64,000 bases of DNA from Escherichia coli (GCF_030013205.1 NZ_CP122648.1), one strand, 5' to 3'. Shown: positions 30,533 through 41,624, counted from the first letter of the stretch. Numbers and translations are program-made. Notes: generated from the sequence alone by a model not told the origin.

Positions 30533-31038
30533 AAAACTCCTGCATGGCGCAAGTTAATCACACGCGGCCAAAGTTCGAAATAACGCTGCTCTGAAAGCCA
30601 GGCGTCAGGATAAAACGCCATATAGTGTTTGATACGCATCAGCAGCGCAAGAAGCGGTTGCTCGCCACGGCGATAACTGTCGATAAGCGCCGCCAGCTGC
30701 TGGCGTTCTGTGGAATCAATATGTGGGCGAAAATATCCCTGAACGTGCATCAAAACGTTAGTATGATCACGCCGGTTGGCAGGGTGAGAAAGCAAAACAA
30801 TTACGCGTTGGCGGTACTGGTTGTAATAGTCATCCAGATTTTGCCACTGGTGAATATCAGCCACAAACGGGCCAAGTTTGCGGTACTCCGGCTGGGAATG
30901 GGCCAGAAAGACGAGTTTATAGCGGCTGTGATAATCGTTGAGTGCCCCGCGCGTTAAGCCATGTTCTTTCAGTCGATGTAACTCATGAAGGGCGAAGATA
31001 CGGATTAGGGTGCTGTCATCAAATCGTTGCTGATTCAT
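30529..31038 (-). CDS. ybgA: DUF1722 protein cotranscribed with phr
   Basis: 169 aa; 4-bp overlap with phr. Confidence 0.85.
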   Translation of the reverse strand: MNQQRFDDSTLIRIFALHELHRLKEHGLTRGALNDYHSRYKLVFLAHSQPEYRKLGPFVADIHQWQNLDDYYNQYRQRVIVLLSHPANRRDHTNVLMHVQGYFRPHIDSTERQQLAALIDSYRRGEQPLLALLMRIKHYMAFYPDAWLSEQRYFELWPRVINLRHAGVL

Positions 31039-31109
31039 TACTGCTCCTGAACGGTTTACAGGAGTAAGTGTAGACGTTGGGAAATGATATTTGTGAAGTT
31101 AATCCTGTT

Positions 31110-32095
31110 GTAGCAGGGCAAGATTACGAAAGCCCGCTCCCCGCAAGGACTGACGTCAGGTAGTTTCTGTCCATGGCTGCCCTTTCCATTCAAACGTGAA
31201 ATCAATAAGTTCATCAGGGACATCGCAAACAATATGAAGACGGATTTCTTCTCTGCCGTGACTTTTTTCACTAATTGCGTAACTGTCATGCTCTGGATTA
31301 TTTAATTCTTTCAGTGGGAATTTTTCCTCAAAGGCTTTATTAAGCCGCCCCTGATTTCCTTTTACAGCGAATAAATAATCACCGCCCTGTTTTTGTATCT
31401 TCTCTGCGATATCTTTCTGGCAACCCATCGCATCAGTTGTGATAATTTTTCCTTTAATATCCAGCATGTTAAGAAGTTCAGGGATAGCTGTGATCTCATT
31501 GGATTTCTTATCCGTCCTGATCTGTCCGATGACAAGACTGTGCATTGTTGAGAACGCACTAATGACATGAATCGCTCCCCTGCGGCGACTCTTGTCATAA
31601 GAATGCCGGAGCGTTTTTCCATCAATTGCAATAACGTCTTTATCATCTGAAGAATGGCAGTCACGCATCCAGTTAATAAAGCACTCGTGAAATTTTGAAG
31701 GACTGATACAGGATACAACTCTGGCGATGGTATCGTGAACAGGAATACCATTTTAAAAATCACCATATTGTTTTAAAAAATCGAGATGTGTTTCCCCAAA
31801 ATCCTCTATATCTTCCCAACCGTCTGCACAAGAAATAACGGCACAAATAGTCAACAGTAGAATATCCGACAATTTATGTTCCACTTTCCTGGCATGTCTG
31901 TAATCGGAAGTAATAGAAATATGTTCCATCAATTTTTTAAGTTCCATTTTGTTCTCCTTAATTATGTAAGGAGTATTTGATCATGTATAAGCAATAAAAA
32001 AGAGCTTCAGGTAATGAGGAATATCTCAATTTTTAAACATAAAATGCGAATTGTTTAGTACAAAAAAGCAGCGTTACGTGATCTTTCCCTGGTGA
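31110..32095 (-). mobile_element. H-repeat (ISAs1-family) element copy 1, degenerate
   Basis: terminal sequences shared with copy 2 (gcagggNaagattacgaaagcccgc at one end, gatctttccc at the other); internal deletion of about 385 bp plus a TAA nonsense codon. Confidence 0.8.
31156..31947 (-). pseudogene. H-repeat-associated (ISAs1-type) transposase, disrupted
   Basis: ORF track fragments 31753..31947 and 31156..31668 same frame; ...YGDF then TAA where copy 2 has GAA; C-terminus replaced after FTFEWKG by deletion. Confidence 0.8.
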
Positions 32096-32545
32096 CAGTC
32101 ACGGCAGCGGAATCGATCATGTCCTTTTGGGTTCTTCCCGTGACGGTAAACCTGAACGGACTGGCAACGGGGGCAATGAAGGTTAACAGTGACCATGAAG
32201 GAACCTTAAAAGCGAGTATTATACCACTCATTCAACTAATTGGAGGCATTACCCATCCCTTTTAACACGATCTTTTCCATATAAAACAGGAATAAGTTGC
32301 TCCATGTTGTAATTTTTATATTTTTCATGCAAAAACAACTCCCTGCTTTCTTTTCGTCTTTTATTCACATCAATAATTTTCATATCAACTATCTCATTTT
32401 CTTTGCTATCTTATCTTTTGAATGGCGTGAATGCTTGCCCCCCATGCTTTCATTGTGCTTTTTGCCTCTAACGGTGAATATTTACCTTGTGAAATTAATT
32501 CCTCAAGCATCTCACATCTGCTCTAGTAAAGAAATAGTTCATATT

Positions 32546-32995
32546 CTATAGTTTAATGACCTCGCCAAGCTTACCCCCCTCATCGGCATAAAAAGCACTC
32601 AAATACAGATCACCCTTATTTTCTTTTGTAAACTCAAATTCCTCTATTAGAGAGTAATGTTCATATGTAGAGCGATAGGTTAAAACCACAACATTATGAT
32701 TAATTACATTACTCGCCAATAAGTTTATTTTATTTAATCTTCCAAACACCTGTTTTTTTTCTTTCATTATCGTTATAAAAACATCTTCCGATGTTGCTTT
32801 TTTAAATTCACTGCTTGTGTCAGAGTAGATTTTGTCCACTTCATTCTGATTGTATAGTTTTTGAATGATAACAACTTTATCCTGCGCAATTTTTCTAATA
32901 TCAGCATCATTCTTTATTACATTATGACTAATGTCTTTCCCCAAAAACATAAAAACCACTACTGCTACAATAACAATACTCACTTTTATTTTCAT
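32546..32995 (-). CDS. candidate immunity protein for orphan Rhs tip 2; N-terminal signal peptide or membrane anchor
   Basis: 149 aa, MKIKVSIVIVAVVVFMFLG hydrophobic N-terminus; AT-rich; start 4 bp from upstream toxin stop. Confidence 0.55.
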   Translation of the reverse strand: MKIKVSIVIVAVVVFMFLGKDISHNVIKNDADIRKIAQDKVVIIQKLYNQNEVDKIYSDTSSEFKKATSEDVFITIMKEKKQVFGRLNKINLLASNVINHNVVVLTYRSTYEHYSLIEEFEFTKENKGDLYLSAFYADEGGKLGEVIKL

Positions 32996-32998
32996 AAA

Positions 32999-33780
32999 TT
33001 AATATCCTGCCAATTGTGATAAACACCATAAACTTTGCGAACAGGTAAGTTCGCCAACAAAACCACCAAATCCGGGACCAATACTCACTGTGCCTGAATT
33101 TTTTCCGTCTGCATCCCTAACCCCTGCAATGGAATATTTTTTCAAATAACCACCTGTAGATATATAACCTTTAGTAAGATACTCCCCCGGAGAGATTTTT
33201 GCTTGCGATGCTGTACCTGACAAAGAAATACCGATTGCAGAACCAACACCATTATGTTCACACAAAGTATAATACATACAAACATCCAGATTAGCTGGAG
33301 CTCTGTCATTCCCCCCAACTGTTGCTCCCACAGCAAAACTAGCCCCTGTAAATTCGTCACCATTAAAACTTATATCAATAGATCCTGAACCAGGGAAAGG
33401 AGTAGTATAAATTTTAGAAGTCACATCCGAAGGAGCGTTATTATTATACATAGAGTTATTCATAAATTCGCCCCAATTGCTATATAATCCCAAAGCATCT
33501 GTGTATGCAACAGGATTCAACGGATACTGATAAAAATTCCATCCCCACTTCAGCCCAATCGGATCATGAGTGATATACCGCCCCTGCAGCGGGTCATAAT
33601 AGCGGTGGCGGTTGTAATACAGGCCGGACTCCTCATCATACTGCTGCCCCGGCAGGCGGACAAGCTGCTGCAGCTGATGCGGGTTCTCTTCATTCAGCAG
33701 GTTGCCCCACTCATCGTATTCTGCGCACCATTCTGTTGCCCCTTCCGTGCTGATAAGCGCCAGCGGCAGGTTATTCGGTT
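32999..33780 (-). CDS. orphan Rhs C-terminal tip 2 (core-end remnant plus glycine-rich toxin domain), no ATG/GTG start
   Basis: minus-strand frame open from about 33780 to stop at 32999; encodes ...[73 protein letters not shown]...[13 protein letters not shown] then a divergent 160-aa domain; ORF track lists the TTG-initiated part 32999..33520. Confidence 0.75.
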
Positions 33781-33893
33781 TGCGTCGTTGAGTTCACTAC
33801 ACTAAAACTCCGTGCCCATATAACCCAAGTCGGAGGCATGCCTTCCTCTGGTTCGTTCCATCTAAAATGTCTATACATAACATGGTTATTCAA

Positions 33894-34286
33894 TTATTTT
33901 TCTTTGAATTTATTCTCAATCCAGCTGTCTTTATACCTGATGAAAATTTGACACTCACCAATATTATCAATGCCTCCAGAATTTGTATTTGGAATTTGTC
34001 CAACTGCAACTATAGTTGATTCAAAATATTCAACATTGACATTATCTGTAATTATTGAAATTATATAATCATCTGGAATAGAGCCATTAGGAGTTATATT
34101 GAAGAAACTAACACCTGAAAATACCAAATAACCATCTTCTAAGTCTTCATTATCATAAAAATTCCATTCTGTTGTACCATAGGCTATCCTTGAGATTAAA
34201 TTAACCTGAATTCTAATTTGTTTACTCCATAAATCAAATTCAATTTTTTTTATTGCTCGATCACCAAGATATATTCTATCAAACAT
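33894..34286 (-). CDS. candidate immunity protein for orphan Rhs tip 1 (cytoplasmic)
   Basis: 130 aa, no signal peptide, AT-rich, starts 14 bp after upstream toxin stop. Confidence 0.55.
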   Translation of the reverse strand: MFDRIYLGDRAIKKIEFDLWSKQIRIQVNLISRIAYGTTEWNFYDNEDLEDGYLVFSGVSFFNITPNGSIPDDYIISIITDNVNVEYFESTIVAVGQIPNTNSGGIDNIGECQIFIRYKDSWIENKFKEK

Positions 34287-34300
34287 ATTATCCCCCTATT

Positions 34301-35203
34301 CTAAAAATACTCAGGCATTCCGCACATTATATCAGCCTCATCTTGATTGCTTCCCGTTGACATTTCAACATACATAGCATAATAACATTGTCCAAACGTT
34401 CCCTCTCTACATGATCTAAGTGTAAACATATGTAAAACAGAACTAAAAAAGCTTAGTGTACCGAGTGATCTAATACCGATATGTGCGGCACTACTATTCC
34501 ATGGTACAACGCGACCATTAACATCAAGGGATGGACCTTGGCCTTTCATACCGCTACCTGTTCCTGGTAAATGTGCATGTGCATGTGGTGTTGAATTGTT
34601 TGCATGCCCTATTGGATTAAGCCTATAAGCATTTGAATTATTCTGATAAAGAGTGTGAGTATCTGCACTTCCTGGATTACTGGGGGGATACGGGATTGTT
34701 CTGCCACCTACCGGTTCAACCATAATATTGCCTTTAGAATCACCTATAAACCTACCAACAGGTTGTTGAGTTATAGGATCAATAGTACAGGATTGACTTA
34801 CAGGTTTTTGTCTGGGAGAAGGTAATGATAATAGATCTAATCCCAAAGGGTCTATATACTGAACCGGATTCAACGGATACTGATAAAAATTCCATCCCCC
34901 CTTCAGTCCAATCGGATCCTGAGTGATATACCGCCCCTGCAGCGGGTCATAATAGCGGTGGCGGTTGTAATAGAGGCCGGACTCCTCATCATACTGCTGA
35001 CCCGGCAGGCGGATGAGCTGCTGCAGTTGATGCGGGTTCTCTTCATTCAGCAGGTTGCCCCACTCATCGTATTCTGCGCACCATTCTGTTGCCCCTTCCG
35101 TGCTGATAAGCGCCAGCGGCAGGCCGCGATGGTCGCAGTGGTACAGGTGGATTTTTCGCGCCGGCGTGTACACCGGGTCCATCTGGTTTTGCATCTGCGT
35201 CAC
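34301..35203 (-). CDS. orphan Rhs C-terminal tip 1 (core-end remnant plus unclassified toxin domain)
   Basis: 300 aa; first about 115 residues near-identical to rhsC core end up to [13 protein letters not shown], then unique 185 aa; begins with GTG exactly at H-repeat copy 2 boundary. Confidence 0.75.
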
Positions 35204-35204
35204 C

Positions 35205-36495
35205 GCAGGGAAAGATTACGAAAGCCCGCTCCCAGCAAGGACTGACGCCAGATAGTTTCTGTCCATGGCTGCTTTTCGCATCTTACGTCTTAACCCTGCC
35301 TTGAATACCTTATCATTCGTCAAAATATTAATAGCAATGTGCCGTATCCCTGAAAATAATTCTGCTGCATTTCCTCTTCTTATTTTGCAGTCGTCTTCAT
35401 TCATTACCACGTCCAGACGCCAGTGCAGCTTATTCTCCACGTGCCAGTGGTTTCGGATTGCTGTGGCGAACTTTTCTGCGGTTAAATCAGCAGAACTGAT
35501 ATAATATCTGACCGTCATTTCTGGCTCTTTCTTTTGTTCTGCTATTATTGACCGAAAGGAGACTGCCACGCATAATTTCTTCATTCCTTTCCATTCAAAC
35601 GTGAAATCAATAAGTTCATCAGGGACATCGCAAACAATGTGAAGACGGATTTCTTCTTTGCCGTGACTCTTTTCACTTATTTCGTAACTGTCATGCTTTG
35701 GATTATTTAATTCTTTCAGCGGAAATTTTCCCTCAAAGGCTTTATTTAGTCGTCCCTGATTTCCTTTTACAGCGAATACATAATCACCGCCCTGTTTTTG
35801 TATCTTCTCTGCAATATCTTTCTGGCAACCCATCGCATCAGTTGTGATGATTTTTCCTTTAATATCCAACATGTTAAGAAGTTCAGGGATAGCTGTGATT
35901 TCATTGGATTTCTCATCCGTCCTGATCTGTCCGATGACCAGACTGTGCATTGTTGAGAACGCACTAATGACATGAATCGCTCCCCTGCGGCGACTCTTGT
36001 CATAAGAATGCCGGAGCGTTTTTCCATCAATTGCAATAACGTCTTTATCATCTGAAGAATGGCAGTCACGCATCCAGTTAATAAAGCACTCGTGAAATTT
36101 TGCAGGACTGATACAGGATACAACTCTGGCAATGGTATCGTGAACAGGAATACCATTTTCAAAATCACCATATTGCTTCAAAAAATCGAGATGTGTTTCC
36201 CCAAAATCCTCTATATCTTCCCAGCATTCTGCACCAGAAATAACGGCACAAATAGTCAACAGTAGAATATCCGACAATTTATGTTCCACTTTCCAGGCTT
36301 GTCTTTAATCGAGGATAATAGAAATATGTTCCATCAATTTTTTAAGTTCCATTTTGTTCTACTTAATTATGTAAGGAGTATTTGATCATGTATACGCAAT
36401 AAAAAACAGCTTCAGGTAATGAGGAATATCTCAATTTTTAAACATAAAATGCGAATTACTTAGTACAAAAAAGCAGCGTTACGTGATCTTTCCCT
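35205..36495 (-). mobile_element. H-repeat (ISAs1-family) element copy 2
   Basis: about 1.3 kb; same terminal sequences as copy 1; same orientation as copy 1. Confidence 0.8.
35216..36360 (-). pseudogene. H-repeat-associated transposase with in-frame TAA at codon 15 (remaining ORF 357 aa)
   Basis: [19 protein letters not shown], then ORF track 35216..36289 from a GTG; N-terminal segment carries several substitutions relative to copy 1. Confidence 0.7.
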
Positions 36496-36692
36496 GGGGC
36501 TTTAACTTCCCTTTATTCATAAACTCATGGATATGGTGATCAACGGTGGTCTGATGGAGGCGCAGAGCCTGAGTAATCATGACTGAATTTCAGCCTTCAG
36601 AAGCCAGAAAAATGGCTTTAATACAATCGCAGCCCCGCTTTTCACAACATTATGCTTATAATATGAAAAATATCTTGCCTTGCATCTTTGTG

Positions 36693-37171
36693 CCTACGGC
36701 ATTGGATGATCTTTCCCTAACCTTATAGTTTCTTTTAGCCTTTCAAGCCTTAGCAATTCAACCTCGGCTTTAATATAGCCATGTGAGGCAGCCATTTTCA
36801 GCCAATTAATTGCATTATCTAAATTATAATATTTTAAATAGGAATCATCCTCCTCTGAGGATAGAATCATAGCATAATTATATTGCGCTATGATATTTCC
36901 TTGAGATGCAGACCTTGCCAGATATTTAATTTGCTTGGGTATATTAAAGCAAACATATGTATAATATTGATGTAATCGATATGACGCATCACCATCCCCG
37001 CCCTCAGATTTAATATCAAGTTCATATCTTTGATTTTTACTTAAATTAAACGATTCAGATGTTGAGCTTATTTCAATGTTATGGAGCTTAATAGGGGGGG
37101 GATTTCACCTCCATATGAACAACAAGAGAAAAAGAAAACATTTGCAATCAGAATAAATAAAAAGCACTTCA
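36693..37171 (-). pseudogene. frameshifted small lipoprotein with Sel1-like repeats; candidate rhsC cognate immunity gene
   Basis: ATG about 14 bp after rhsC stop; MKCFLFILIANVFFFSCCSYGGEI then an 8-nt homopolymer (G8 on + strand, about 37093-37100) shifts frame; with 9 nt the ORF reads about 155 aa. Confidence 0.6.
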
Positions 37172-37185
37172 TGTTGCCACCTTTG

Positions 37186-40100
37186 TTATTTTATATCACT
37201 TGGTCTCATAACTTTGCCAGGAGTGGAAGAAATGGGTTGACCTGAAGGTCCAAACGTTATCCAGCGGCCCATATTATTACCAGTTATGACATTATTACTT
37301 GTGTCAATTGCCGAGATATTATCCGTAAGTCCTGTTTGGATCGTATTAAAAAGAGGAGTATTATTATCCCACGCCATCCATACTTGCCATTGTGTATCAG
37401 CTCCAGTGACATTTGCATGAAGTGCTCTGGCTAACTTGCTGGCAAAAGATTTATTTCCCTCTCTGGCTGTACCACATGAGAATAACCAAACAGACATTCC
37501 CTTTTTATAGCGTGGATTAGCTCTGATTCTCTTGGCTAATCCCTCAGCGGTCTCATAATTTCCACTTTCATCTGTAATAAAACCAGGATATCCATGTCCT
37601 CCAATAGTAAAAACGCCAGGAATATTTATTTTATCTGTTGCAGCATGCAGTGATACATTTCTGCGTAGACTCTCATCATAGAAATTCATATCAGCTAATC
37701 CAAAAGGGTCTATATACTGAACCGGATTTAACGGGTACTGATAAAAATTCCATCCCCCCTTCTGCCCAATCGGATCCTGAGTGATATACCGCCCCTGCAG
37801 CGGGTCATAATAGCGGTGGCGGTTGTAATAGAGGCCGGACTCCTCATCATACTGCTGACCCGGCAGGCGGATGAGCTGCTGCAGCTGGTGCGGGTTCTCT
37901 TCATTCAGCAGGTTGCCCCATTCATCGTATTCTGCGCACCATTCTGTTGCCCCTTCCGTGCTGATAAGCGCCAGCGGCAGGCCGCGATGGTCGCAGTGGT
38001 ACAGGTGGATTTTTCGCGCCGGCGTGTACACCGGGTCTATCTGGTTTTGCATCTGCTCCACTGTCAGGCCGCACGATGCCAGCCAGCGGCGGCTTTCCTC
38101 ACTCACCCGGTCAGCCAGGATTTCACTTTCCAGCCGATCGAGCATCTGTACCAGCACCGGCGGGAACACCACACTGCCACCGTCTTCACCGCCGGACTGC
38201 TGAAGGGCATCCGCTAGGCTGCGGCGCTGCGTTTTCGCCAGCTCACCGGTGGCGGTTTCGACCCTGATGAGTGGCGTGAAGCTCCCCGGCTGATAAACCG
38301 TCTGGATGCGGGTTCTGTCGTTCTGTATTGTGGTCAGCCGGTCGCCGTCCCAGCCGTACCAGGTCACTTCCGGTTTCCGTGACAGCGACATCCAGCCCGT
38401 CAGGTCCCGTTCACGCCGCCACACCCGTTTTGCCACCCTGCGGCCCAGCGGGTCGTAAAGATAGCGGCTTTCAACCAGCGGCTCTGCATATTGTGTCCGC
38501 GTGTAGTGCACCAGCCGGTGCCGGCTGTCGTAATGGTACCGGTGAGTCCGCTCATCATCCGTGCGGATAACCCCTTCCGGGATGAGGTCGGTTTTCTCCG
38601 TCAGCCTGCCGTGACGGTCATACCGGTAAAGATAGTGCGCGTCACGGGCGATACGGTTATCCGGCCACATGCTGAGGGTGCTGTCCGGGTGCAGCTCCGG
38701 GTCGGGCAGGCGGTTGCCCGCCGGGTCCGTGGCATACGGGATGCGGATATCCAGATTCGCTGCGGTGGTGTGGACGCCGGTCAGCCTGCCGGTGTCGCTG
38801 TAGCTGTAACTCCGGGTCTGGCGCGGGCTGCTGATGCGGATGAGTTCGCCGTTGTCGTTCCAGGTGTAATCGCGGTCATACTGCAGGCTGTTCAGGTGCT
38901 GGCTCTGTAACTGCCCGGCAGGGGTGTAAGCGGTGGTGAGTTCATAACGGCCGAAGCTGCGCAGCGTTTCCCGGTGCAGGCGGTCGCGGGTGTACTCCAC
39001 CAGCGGTGTGTCGCCGAGTTTCATGCCTGACAGCCAGCCGCTGCCGTAGGTCAGCCATTCCACGGCGGGCAGGCTGTCCGGTATACAGCGGTTCGCCAGT
39101 CCCTGCGTGTTGTAAGCGTGTCTGGTTTCATGCTGCCAGAGCAGTGCTTCCGTCTGCGGATGATGCACCGTCTGGCGCTCACCGGTCAGGCGGCCTTTCT
39201 CATCATACCCGTAATGCACCGTCACCCGGTGGCCTTCGCTGAGATGGCTGATGCCTGTCAGCCAGCCGCGTTCGTCATACTGCCACTGCTCTGCAGGTTC
39301 ACCCTTCACGGTGCGGTGAGTGAGGCGGTCTGCTTCGTCATAGTGCCAGTGGGTGACCAGCCCCTCATCCTCGCTGCGGATAAGTTTACCGGTCAGGTCG
39401 TGGTGATAACGCTGTGTGCGGCCGTCAAAGCCGGTTTCCTGTATCAGCCGGTCGAGTACATCGTAACGGAAGGTGGTGTGGCTGCCGTTTTCACTGGTCA
39501 GGCGGATGACCCGTCCGGCAGCATCGTATTCCATACTGCGCGTCAGACCGCCCTGTGTGGTACGGATGGCCTTTCCCCACGCATCGTACTGTGTCCCGTT
39601 TCTGCTGCCGTCCGGGGCAATGACGGCGGTCAGGTCACCGGCGGCGTTGTATTCATACCGCGTTTCATGGCCCTGCGTGTCTTTCACCGCAATTAACTGT
39701 CCACGGCTGTCGTATGCGCGGTACTGACTCAGCCCTTCCTCGCGGTGCACCGCCGTCACCTGACCAAAACGGTCATGGTCATAACGGGTTACATAACCGG
39801 AACAGTCAGTGACGGTCAGCAACTGACCGTAACGGCTCCATGTCATGGTTTTCCGGCTGCCGGTGGCATCTTCCGTTGCGCAGGGTAAGTCACTGTGTGG
39901 ATTATCATAACGGTAGCGGGTGATATCGCCGTTGTGTGCGGTTTCCTGAATCAGACGGCCGGATTCATCATATTTGCGGCGCAACTCCAGCCCGTCAGTC
40001 CCGGTGGCTGACGTTAACTGGTTGTGGTGGTTATAGTAAAATGCCGATGCCCTGCCATCCGGTGTGGTGATGCGCGTGATGAGTCCCGTCACCACATCCG

Positions 40101-41436
40101 GGCTGTACTCAGTCGTCCGGCCTGCGGCATCCGTCTGTGCCTTAAGCCCACCCACCGCGTCAAACTGACTCTGCGTGACGCTGCCGTCCGCGTGTTCCTT
40201 TTTCACCACCCGCTTCAGCCCGCCTTCGCCCTGCGTGTGCAGCACTTCACGGCGGTCCAGACTGTCGGTGATGGTGATGCGGTCTTTCTCATACTGATAC
40301 GTGTAGCTTAAGCCTGCCGGGTTTAGCTGTTCTGTCACCCGCCCGTCGCTGTCGTAACGGTAACGGATTTCCGGCCGGCCCGTGTGACGGTGCGCCACCA
40401 TCCGGCCCCGGTATTTATCATCGTAAGTAAAGCTGCGCACCTGTGTATTGCTGCGGTCATACACCGCCGCCAGTTCGCCGCGTGGCGTCCAGCCATAGCG
40501 CACCAGCGGCGCGGCAGGTAAATTCTCCGGGTATTCCGGGTCGTGCGTCAGCCACACGGCAGACAGACGGATGCCGTTGTCCCGGCCATATTCGGTGTAA
40601 CCCGGCAGGGTATCAGGAAAAGCGGACGGTTCCGTCCCGCCGGAAATGGCCTGCTGCCGGGCCTCTTCTGCCCGCAGCGCCTGCGTGGTCAGTACCAGCC
40701 GGAAGTGACGCCCGGCACCATCCGTCACGCCGGTGATTTCGCCGCTGAATTCGCCGCCAGCCTCACGGTGGAACGTCTGTGTGCGCCCGAAGCGGTCCAC
40801 CAGCCCGGTCAGTACCCGGTACGGCGGCAGCGGCGCAGACAGCACCTCATCCGCCTCCGGCACCCGCTCACACCAGCCGAGTACCCACCACGGCCCCTGC
40901 GGACTGTTCGTCGCCAGATAACGATGCGGACTCAGGCGAAGCTCTTCCGGCAGCGCCTGCCAGAGTGCGGCCAGCCGGTGACCTTCATCCAGTTTCGCCA
41001 CGCCGCCGCGCACCAGCCAGAGTGACTCGCTGCGGCTGTAACCGTCCTCACCGGGAAACAGGTGCTCAAAATACAGGCTTCTGCCGCCGTTATCACTGAG
41101 TATCAGTGTGTTATCGCGCAGCTGTAAGCGGATATCCGCAGGCATTTTCCAGCCGGGGCCGAGGCTCCCCACCGGCGCGGGCGTTTTTGTCCGGTAACTG
41201 CTGTAGGTGCGGGAGAGGATGAACGGCAGCGGGCCGGGCAGGGCAAGGTCGGTTTCGCCGGGAAGGACCTTCGCACCGAGCAGCGGATTGACCGGATGGC
41301 CGGACGTCACCCCGCCGGGGCACACCGAACAGGCCACGCCGGTGGGGGCACCAATACGTACCCCGGCTGAACCCTGAACAATGCTACCGCCATACTGCGT
41401 CATGTCGCCCTGACGCGCCGCCGGTTTTCCGCTCAT
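37186..41436 (-). CDS. rhsC: Rhs family protein, rhsC-type: N-terminal PAAR-like region, YD-repeat core, DPxGL boundary, variable C-terminal toxin domain
   Basis: 1416 aa; [30 protein letters not shown]-terminus, YD repeats, [13 protein letters not shown] then unique 170-aa tip. Confidence 0.95.
37701..38057 (-). repeat. rhs core 3'-end segment repeated at 34843-35203 and about 33515-33770
   Basis: near-identical nucleotide stretches read directly in all three places. Confidence 0.85.
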
Positions 41437-41624
41437 CTGCTCATCCTTGTTTTATCGGGTTATTTGTCTGCTGACAGGCGAAACCCTACAGATTTATAAG
41501 AAAGCCTTAAGTGAGATATCTGTCAGATAAGAACAATTAGGAAAATATTTATATATATTTCATGAATATATGTTTCGATTGGTATAACGGTGTCTAAATA
41601 TTCCTCTGAACATCTTCCTGATAC

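Follow-up and report, generated by a model that had tools for sequence, protein, structure and literature searches.

The rhsC element of swine enterotoxigenic Escherichia coli (ETEC) carries the 3′ end of the rhs core in three direct copies, each followed by a different toxin tip. These copies are very probably the footprints of a history in which toxin tips displaced one another, and they give the locus the potential to reverse that displacement by RecA-dependent exchange; this is the best explanation that we have for the arrangement. We analysed a 64-kb stretch of E. coli NZ_CP122648.1 (the window), with 5,426 complete E. coli genomes as the comparison set. The annotation of strain K_EC180, mapped to the window, gives the gene order kdpFAB - ybfA - rhsC - ... 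- ybgA - phrB, which is that of the classical RhsC site, and swine ETEC genomes, K_EC180 among them, match positions 31000–41500 at 100% identity. Of the 5,426 genomes, 17 have the whole arrangement; these 17 were assembled independently and originate in Korea, Belgium, Japan and other places.

The three copies of the rhs core 3′ end and their potential for exchange

Alignment with BLASTN and MAFFT confirmed what a first-pass annotation of the window had proposed, namely that the 3′ end of the rhs core is present three times, and the peptides encoded by the copies are as described there. All three copies lie on the minus strand in direct orientation. The proposed coordinates led to all three copies, although they were about 6 bp off for two of them; the copy at tip 2 was indeed present and shortened, but its lower end had been placed 30 bp short (33515 given, 33485 found). 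The copies and the modules to which they belong are as follows:

37186–41436, minus strand: full-length rhsC, 4,251 bp and 1,416 amino acids, clade I Rhs core plus tip CT_C (NCBIfam, Pfam, open reading frame)
37695–38056, minus strand: repeat copy 1, the core 3′ end of rhsC, terminating at DPFGL (BLASTN, MAFFT)
37186–37694, minus strand: CT_C, the putative toxin tip now on rhsC, 169 amino acids past DPFGL, GC 0.395
36694–37172, minus strand: cognate immunity gene of CT_C, sel1-repeat type, not in frame in the window
34837–35198, minus strand: repeat copy 2, the truncated core fragment heading orphan 1, terminating at DPLGL (BLASTN, MAFFT)
34301–34836, minus strand: orphan tip 1, putative toxin, 178 amino acids past DPLGL, GC 0.399, intact
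33894–34286, minus strand: tip 1 immunity gene, DUF6258, 130 amino acids (Pfam E = 6.7e-26)
33485–33770, minus strand: repeat copy 3, the shorter core fragment heading orphan 2, terminating at DALGL (BLASTN, MAFFT)
32999–33484, minus strand: orphan tip 2, putative toxin, 161 amino acids, GC 0.393, in frame with the core fragment
32546–32995, minus strand: putative tip 2 immunity gene, 149 amino acids, with an N-terminal hydrophobic segment and a weak DUF3887 match

The rhsC and orphan 1 copies match without gaps over 362 bp, with 9 mismatches (97.5% identity), which is far beyond chance. The orphan 2 copy spans 286 bp and is 93.0% identical to the rhsC copy and 94.4% identical to the orphan 1 copy. 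We found no fourth copy of the core 3′ end anywhere in the window. Each of the three is in frame with its downstream tip, and after each comes a distinct AT-rich tip with its own small immunity gene. Homology between the rhsC and orphan 1 copies ends one base past the Leu codon of DPFGL/DPLGL. The motif PxxxxDPxGL closes the core in rhsC and orphan 1, and a DPxGL boundary had been proposed for all three copies; orphan 2 departs from the motif, reading DALGL, and the final 24 nt before its boundary have diverged, with 16 of 24 matching rhsC. The predicted shift in base composition was borne out after every copy: GC content is 0.625 in the core and 0.54–0.55 in the repeat copies, and falls to 0.39–0.40 in the toxin tips and 0.28–0.34 in the immunity genes, against a window mean of 0.509.

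From its domains, the rhsC product appears to be a Rhs polymorphic toxin, an RHS element core protein of E. coli clade I. It scores 2631.8 bits against NCBIfam RHS_core (cut-off 2000), has YD_repeat_2x in 7 stretches (NCBIfam) and Pfam RHS_repeat in 10, along with Pfam DUF6531 and RHS, and carries the Rhs_assc_core domain at residues 1170–1247 (NCBIfam); K_EC180 annotates the gene as "RHS element core protein". Stop codons lie just upstream of the orphan 1 and orphan 2 stubs, and neither orphan has an N-terminal delivery region. With a truncated core stub, a tip of its own and an immunity gene of its own, each orphan has the appearance of an orphan rhs-CT/rhsI module (CT, C-terminal toxin region).

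In silico chimeras of the rhsC core with either orphan are in frame, encoding 1,425 amino acids for core-tip 1 and 1,408 for core-tip 2. From the spacing of the copies, the corresponding crossovers are predicted to delete 2,858 bp and 4,211 bp, and after either deletion the cognate orphan immunity gene would come next on the 3′ side of the fusion. RecA-dependent exchange needs a segment of about 25 bp at minimum, and the longest perfect runs shared with the rhsC copy, 119 and 116 bp for tip 1 and 60 and 53 bp for tip 2, are far above that. In length and identity the window repeats (362 bp at 97.5%, 286 bp at 93%) are comparable to the repeat of 522 bp at 95% over which rhs-main and rhs-orphan of Salmonella LT2 have been shown experimentally to recombine (PMC3967940), so that the copies are long and similar enough to act as substrates for exchange, as the first-pass annotation had suggested. 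Its further suggestion, that exchange would replace the expressed toxin and delete the intervening DNA, is supported as a statement of potential by the chimeras and the predicted deletions, and it matches the history of these modules at the level of the species. The product expected for tip 1 exists, in strain AST215, but that expected for tip 2 does not occur in the comparison set.

Toxin tips in other genomes and the direction of events

We searched the complete genomes with the two in silico chimeras, and core-tip 1 was matched end to end in about 40 of them. At the ybfA-ybgA locus of AST215, a 4,278-bp (1,425-amino-acid) RHS gene carries tip 1 and is followed by the DUF6258 gene, orphan 2 and the orphan 2 immunity gene. 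Pairwise BLAST shows that this locus is the window minus exactly the 2,858-bp segment between repeat copies 1 and 2. The AST215 flanks are 96–97.5% identical to the window, and overall the two have diverged by 2.5–4%, with private changes in AST215.

Both CT_C and tip 1 change position among strains. Full-length Rhs genes at other loci carry a tip with 99.6% identity to tip 1, which serves as the main tip in the O55:H7 strain CB9615 (rhsA locus) and in strain D8 (rhsB locus); the DUF6258 gene lies 3′ of tip 1 in AST215, CB9615 and D8. The CT_C module, together with the sel1 gene, a fragment of an IS630-family insertion sequence (IS) and an H-rpt element, is present in 257 complete genomes, where it is mostly annotated as partial RHS. 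In RIVM_C036569, CT_C takes the last orphan position in a long array at rhsB, adjoining yhhJ. This array and the window (35205–38056) are colinear from core stub into H-rpt, taking in CT_C, sel1 and the IS630 fragment; there too, the IS630 fragment lies 3′ of the CT_C/sel1 module. Many further strains likewise have the unit as an rhsB orphan. As a separate observation on tip 1, all that is left of it in 553 genomes, O157:H7, REL606 and BL21 among them, is a 58-bp relic of the 3′ end (window 34301–34358), which appears to mark an older tip 1 module that has mostly been deleted.

The stubs themselves point to exchange within the core. The orphan 2 stub and an orphan at the CB9615 rhsA locus share a non-core left junction (20 of 20 nt) and a core fragment (252 of 263 nt) but bear different tips; the same stub with different tips indicates that exchange occurred inside the stub. 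The four single-nucleotide polymorphisms (SNPs) nearest the boundary, at repeat positions 294–355, segregate with the tip and not with the locus. Alongside the anatomy, reading frames and identities described above, the comparisons show shuffling of these modules at the population level: recombination in the conserved 3′ core evidently carries them from main to orphan position or the other way.

We propose that one C-terminal displacement after another left the three core 3′ copies behind as footprints. An incoming segment, made up of a core fragment, a new tip and an immunity gene, would recombine with the resident core; the incoming tip would become the expressed one, and the previous tip would be pushed downstream, keeping a core stub only (362 or 286 bp) and no delivery domain. 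The latest arrival would be the 2,858-bp unit of core stub, CT_C, sel1, IS630 fragment and H-rpt; until then tip 1 would have been the main tip of rhsC, and tip 2 would be an older orphan. Because the copies are direct repeats, the displacement would be undone by a RecA-dependent crossover that joins the rhsC copy to an orphan copy; this would yield in-frame core-tip 1 or core-tip 2 with the matching immunity gene kept, and would release the 2.9 or 4.2 kb in between as circular DNA. The orphan 1 stub begins within a few bases of the H-rpt terminus (window 35199–35209), and this junction (35204/35205) occurs only in the 17 genomes of the window type, which suggests that stub length was set by insertion of H-rpt into the core, or by recombination in which H-rpt provided the right-hand homology.

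The direction of the historical events we infer from AST215. With flanks only 96–97.5% identical to the window, AST215 is no recent offshoot of the window's lineage. It is more likely, judging from these comparisons, that an AST215-like locus with core-tip 1 and orphan 2 is ancestral and that the 2,858-bp unit was inserted later, displacing tip 1. Insertion into such an ancestor is the reverse reaction of the same mechanism. The DALGL of orphan 2 is kept in AST215 and is therefore not a recent lesion.

Several results weigh against displacement and reversible exchange as an account of the whole locus, and some of them concern tip 2, which is the weak part of the model. Tip 2 was found in 18 of the complete genomes, these being the 17 of the window type and AST215, and a core-tip 2 fusion in none of the 5,426; the sole match covering at least 80% of the core-tip 2 chimera is a two-piece join across AST215 and not a fusion. 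A search of 5.8 billion proteins with tip 2 returned five clusters of 106–256 amino acids, from E. coli and E. albertii, with no full-length Rhs among them. Because its stub ends in DALGL in place of DPxGL and is only 93% identical to the rhsC copy, tip 2 may be a decaying relic. As for tip 1, no close relative (at least 99% identity) among the 5,426 genomes has a core-tip 1 fusion at rhsC. The repeat of AST215 is a mosaic, rhsC-like at positions 136–292 and tip 1-like at 294–355; we considered this SNP pattern as an arbiter of direction and rejected it, as it fits either direction and is not diagnostic. None of the three tips matched a known toxin family or solved structure in Pfam (E up to 10), NCBIfam or PDB sequence searches. 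Finally, the window is a single consensus assembly, a kind of sequence that does not show rare rearranged molecules; that exchange is still occurring in this strain is what we infer.

H-rpt repeats and competing explanations

A second pair of direct repeats, formed by two H-rpt copies, brackets both orphan modules. Outward from rhsC, the order is CT_C, the sel1 immunity gene, the IS630 fragment, the ISAs1 H-rpt, orphan 1, the DUF6258 gene, orphan 2, the DUF3887-like open reading frame (ORF), a small hypothetical ORF, an IS1 fragment and the ybfD H-rpt pseudogene. The elements concerned are:

35205–36497, minus strand: H-rpt copy A, ISAs1 family, full-length, abutting the orphan 1 core fragment (Pfam DDE_Tnp_1, DDE_Tnp_1_assoc)
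31113–32092, minus strand: H-rpt copy B, a ybfD pseudogene adjoining ybgA, with a 313-bp internal deletion
36500–36628, minus strand: transposase fragment of the IS630 family, moving together with the CT_C/sel1 module (K_EC180 annotation)
32089–32196: IS1 transposase fragment

The transposase ORF of copy A (35216–36352) has an internal stop. At their outer edges, the two H-rpt homology blocks are flanked by the IS1 and IS630 fragments. Copies A and B match over 913 bp at 95.7% identity, with a longest perfect run of 163 bp, and thus form a longer direct repeat than any rhs core repeat at the locus. In CFSAN018748, a close swine relative, rhsC with CT_C is followed by sel1, the IS630 fragment and a single H-rpt adjoining ybgA, and both orphans are missing. 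Its H-rpt is copy A-like at 39 of 40 diagnostic sites and then carries the internal-deletion junction of copy B. From this pattern, CFSAN018748 most probably lost both orphans in a 4,405-bp deletion by a crossover between H-rpt A and B. Direct-repeat recombination has most probably acted in this lineage, then, removing the orphans rather than activating them. The H-rpt of strain KE55 was also considered as an A/B chimera and was dropped, its pattern resembling the ordinary ybfD allele of AST215.

The CFSAN018748 deletion bears on a possible but less than probable alternative, in which the core repeats are passive scars now out of use, the orphans are remnants, silent and in decay, and the real rearrangement is H-rpt-mediated orphan loss. 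The H-rpt repeat exceeds any core repeat, the chimeric H-rpt of CFSAN018748 stands where both orphans are gone, the core-tip 2 fusion was found nowhere searched, and the 58-bp relic of tip 1 in 553 genomes shows that modules decay. Several points stand against it: the frames of orphans 1 and 2 and both of their immunity genes are intact, tip 1 matches full-length, functional-looking alleles at 99.6% identity, one stub bears different tips in different strains, and recombination of this type has been seen experimentally in Salmonella (PMC3967940). Moreover, this alternative differs from displacement with reversible exchange in present-day activity only, not in origin. We are doubtful of a second alternative, that the orphans are kept mainly for their immunity genes, as protection against neighbours deploying tip 1 or tip 2, with the stubs as hitch-hikers. 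The immunity ORFs of both orphans are intact, whereas their toxins have no delivery domain; other E. coli deploy tip 1 as a main tip, and protection by orphan immunity against non-self effectors has been described in Rhs systems (PMC10539506). Retention for immunity nevertheless leaves unexplained why the toxin parts stay intact and in frame with the stubs, and tip 2, being on no full-length Rhs known, has no known attacker; this explanation is in any case compatible with the exchange model and not exclusive of it.

That the orphans are instead translated from internal starts (GTG at 35203, TTG at 33520) as intracellular toxin–antitoxin-like modules, as proposed for the Salmonella orphan, seems improbable. 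Mechanical ORFs with GTG and TTG starts do exist, and a toxin–antitoxin-like role of main and orphan Rhs is reported for S. Typhimurium (PMC7043789). The orphan 1 start, however, comes directly after the stop of the transposase pseudogene, and a promoter and terminator scan of positions 32400–38200 gave 18 sites against 16.9 expected from shuffles, a count without enrichment that equals the shuffle expectation and is uninformative on orphan expression. An artefactual triplication of the core 3′ end in the assembly has practically no weight. Repeats can in principle be misassembled, and there is no other point in favour of an artefact; the three copies differ from one another at fixed positions, and we regard an artefact as ruled out because 17 independently assembled complete genomes share the identical arrangement. 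Displacement with the potential for RecA-dependent reversal is the explanation that we retain.

Related loci and the main immunity gene

The architecture is of the already known orphan rhs-CT/rhsI type (Jackson, 2009; Poole, 2011; Koskiniemi, 2014), and nothing in it is conceptually new. Its closest experimental counterpart is STM0291/STM0292 of S. Typhimurium LT2, where, as in the window, a full-length rhs gene is followed by an orphan CT/immunity module sharing a direct repeat of the core, and where recombination produces an in-frame chimera that expresses the orphan toxin (PMC3967940). Unlike LT2, the window has two orphans rather than one, with an ISAs1 H-rpt separating orphan 1 from rhsC; no type VI secretion system cluster adjoins the E. 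coli clade I rhs gene, and the recombination demonstrated in LT2 is for the window a predicted potential. LT2 requires a prior duplication that keeps rhsI-main. This requirement may not apply to the window, because in the window assembly the immunity gene of rhsC seems to carry a frameshift.

The window also fits the model of Jackson et al. (2009), in which displacement proceeds by homologous recombination through an excised circle (PMC2935791). The model and the window have in common a GC-rich core, AT-rich tips, dissociated tips with core fragments of variable length, and tips shared by several loci, and the 2,858-bp repeat-bounded unit of the window fits the proposed circle exactly. The clade I locus of the window has two dissociated tips, and many rhsB loci carry long arrays. 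RhsC of E. coli K-12 (rhsC-ybfB-ybfO-ybfC-ybfQ/ybfL/ybfD) occupies the same ybfA/ybgA site and follows the same plan of main gene, immunity gene, orphan core fragment with tip, immunity gene and distal H-rpt copies. Its tips and immunity genes differ from those of the window, it has a single orphan (the 1,434-bp pseudogene ybfO), and, unlike the window, it has no H-rpt between main gene and orphan. Poole et al. (2011) described orphan cdiA-CT/cdiI and rhs-CT/rhsI modules that keep upstream coding sequence up to DPxGL and are followed by the cognate immunity gene, and found such modules fused to full-length genes in other bacteria (PMC3150448). Tip 1 is fused in this way in CB9615, D8 and AST215; tip 2 is unlike these modules, being on no full-length gene found and having the motif DALGL.

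Jackson et al. likened rhs to the silent cassettes of Neisseria pilE/pilS (PMC2935791). The likeness lies in one expressed gene with silent partial copies and in RecA-dependent exchange of the variable part. It differs in that there is no evidence at rhsC for a programmed high-frequency mechanism, in that exchange at rhsC takes the form of deletion or insertion rather than non-reciprocal gene conversion, and in that a toxin is altered and not an antigen. It would be bold, and we think it very improbable, to regard the locus as an actively used variation system, in which the immunity gene of the expressed toxin is switched on and off through a slippage-prone poly-C tract (C8, C9 or C10 in sequences nearly identical otherwise) and the main gene swaps to tip 1 or tip 2 from weapon cassettes in the manner of pilE/pilS. 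Were it true, subpopulations could deploy the tip 2 toxin, so far known in Escherichia solely as a silent cassette.

Rhs tips determine the neighbours that a strain is able to kill and those against which it is protected, and tip exchange therefore reshapes competition among gut E. coli, including pig ETEC. The locus offers a clean worked example: CT_C is the main tip here and an orphan elsewhere, tip 1 is an orphan here and the main tip at three loci elsewhere, and a close relative has lost both orphans by way of another repeat.

The poly-C tract lies at 37094–37101, inside the sel1-repeat immunity gene. It is C8 in the window, leaving only 34- and 58-amino-acid ORFs. In ETEC4070 and RIVM_C036569 it is C9, which gives a 159-amino-acid protein with a signal- or lipobox-like N-terminus, and in KE55 it is C10, which gives a 149-amino-acid protein from a different start. 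Spans of C8 length and of C9 length are both frequent among the 257 module-carrying genomes; in about 15 of 40 sampled genomes the span has C8 length and sel1 is unannotated. The variation may represent slipped-strand (phase) variation of the immunity gene, or homopolymer sequencing error. Some relatives have additional IS1 or IS66 insertions within the locus.

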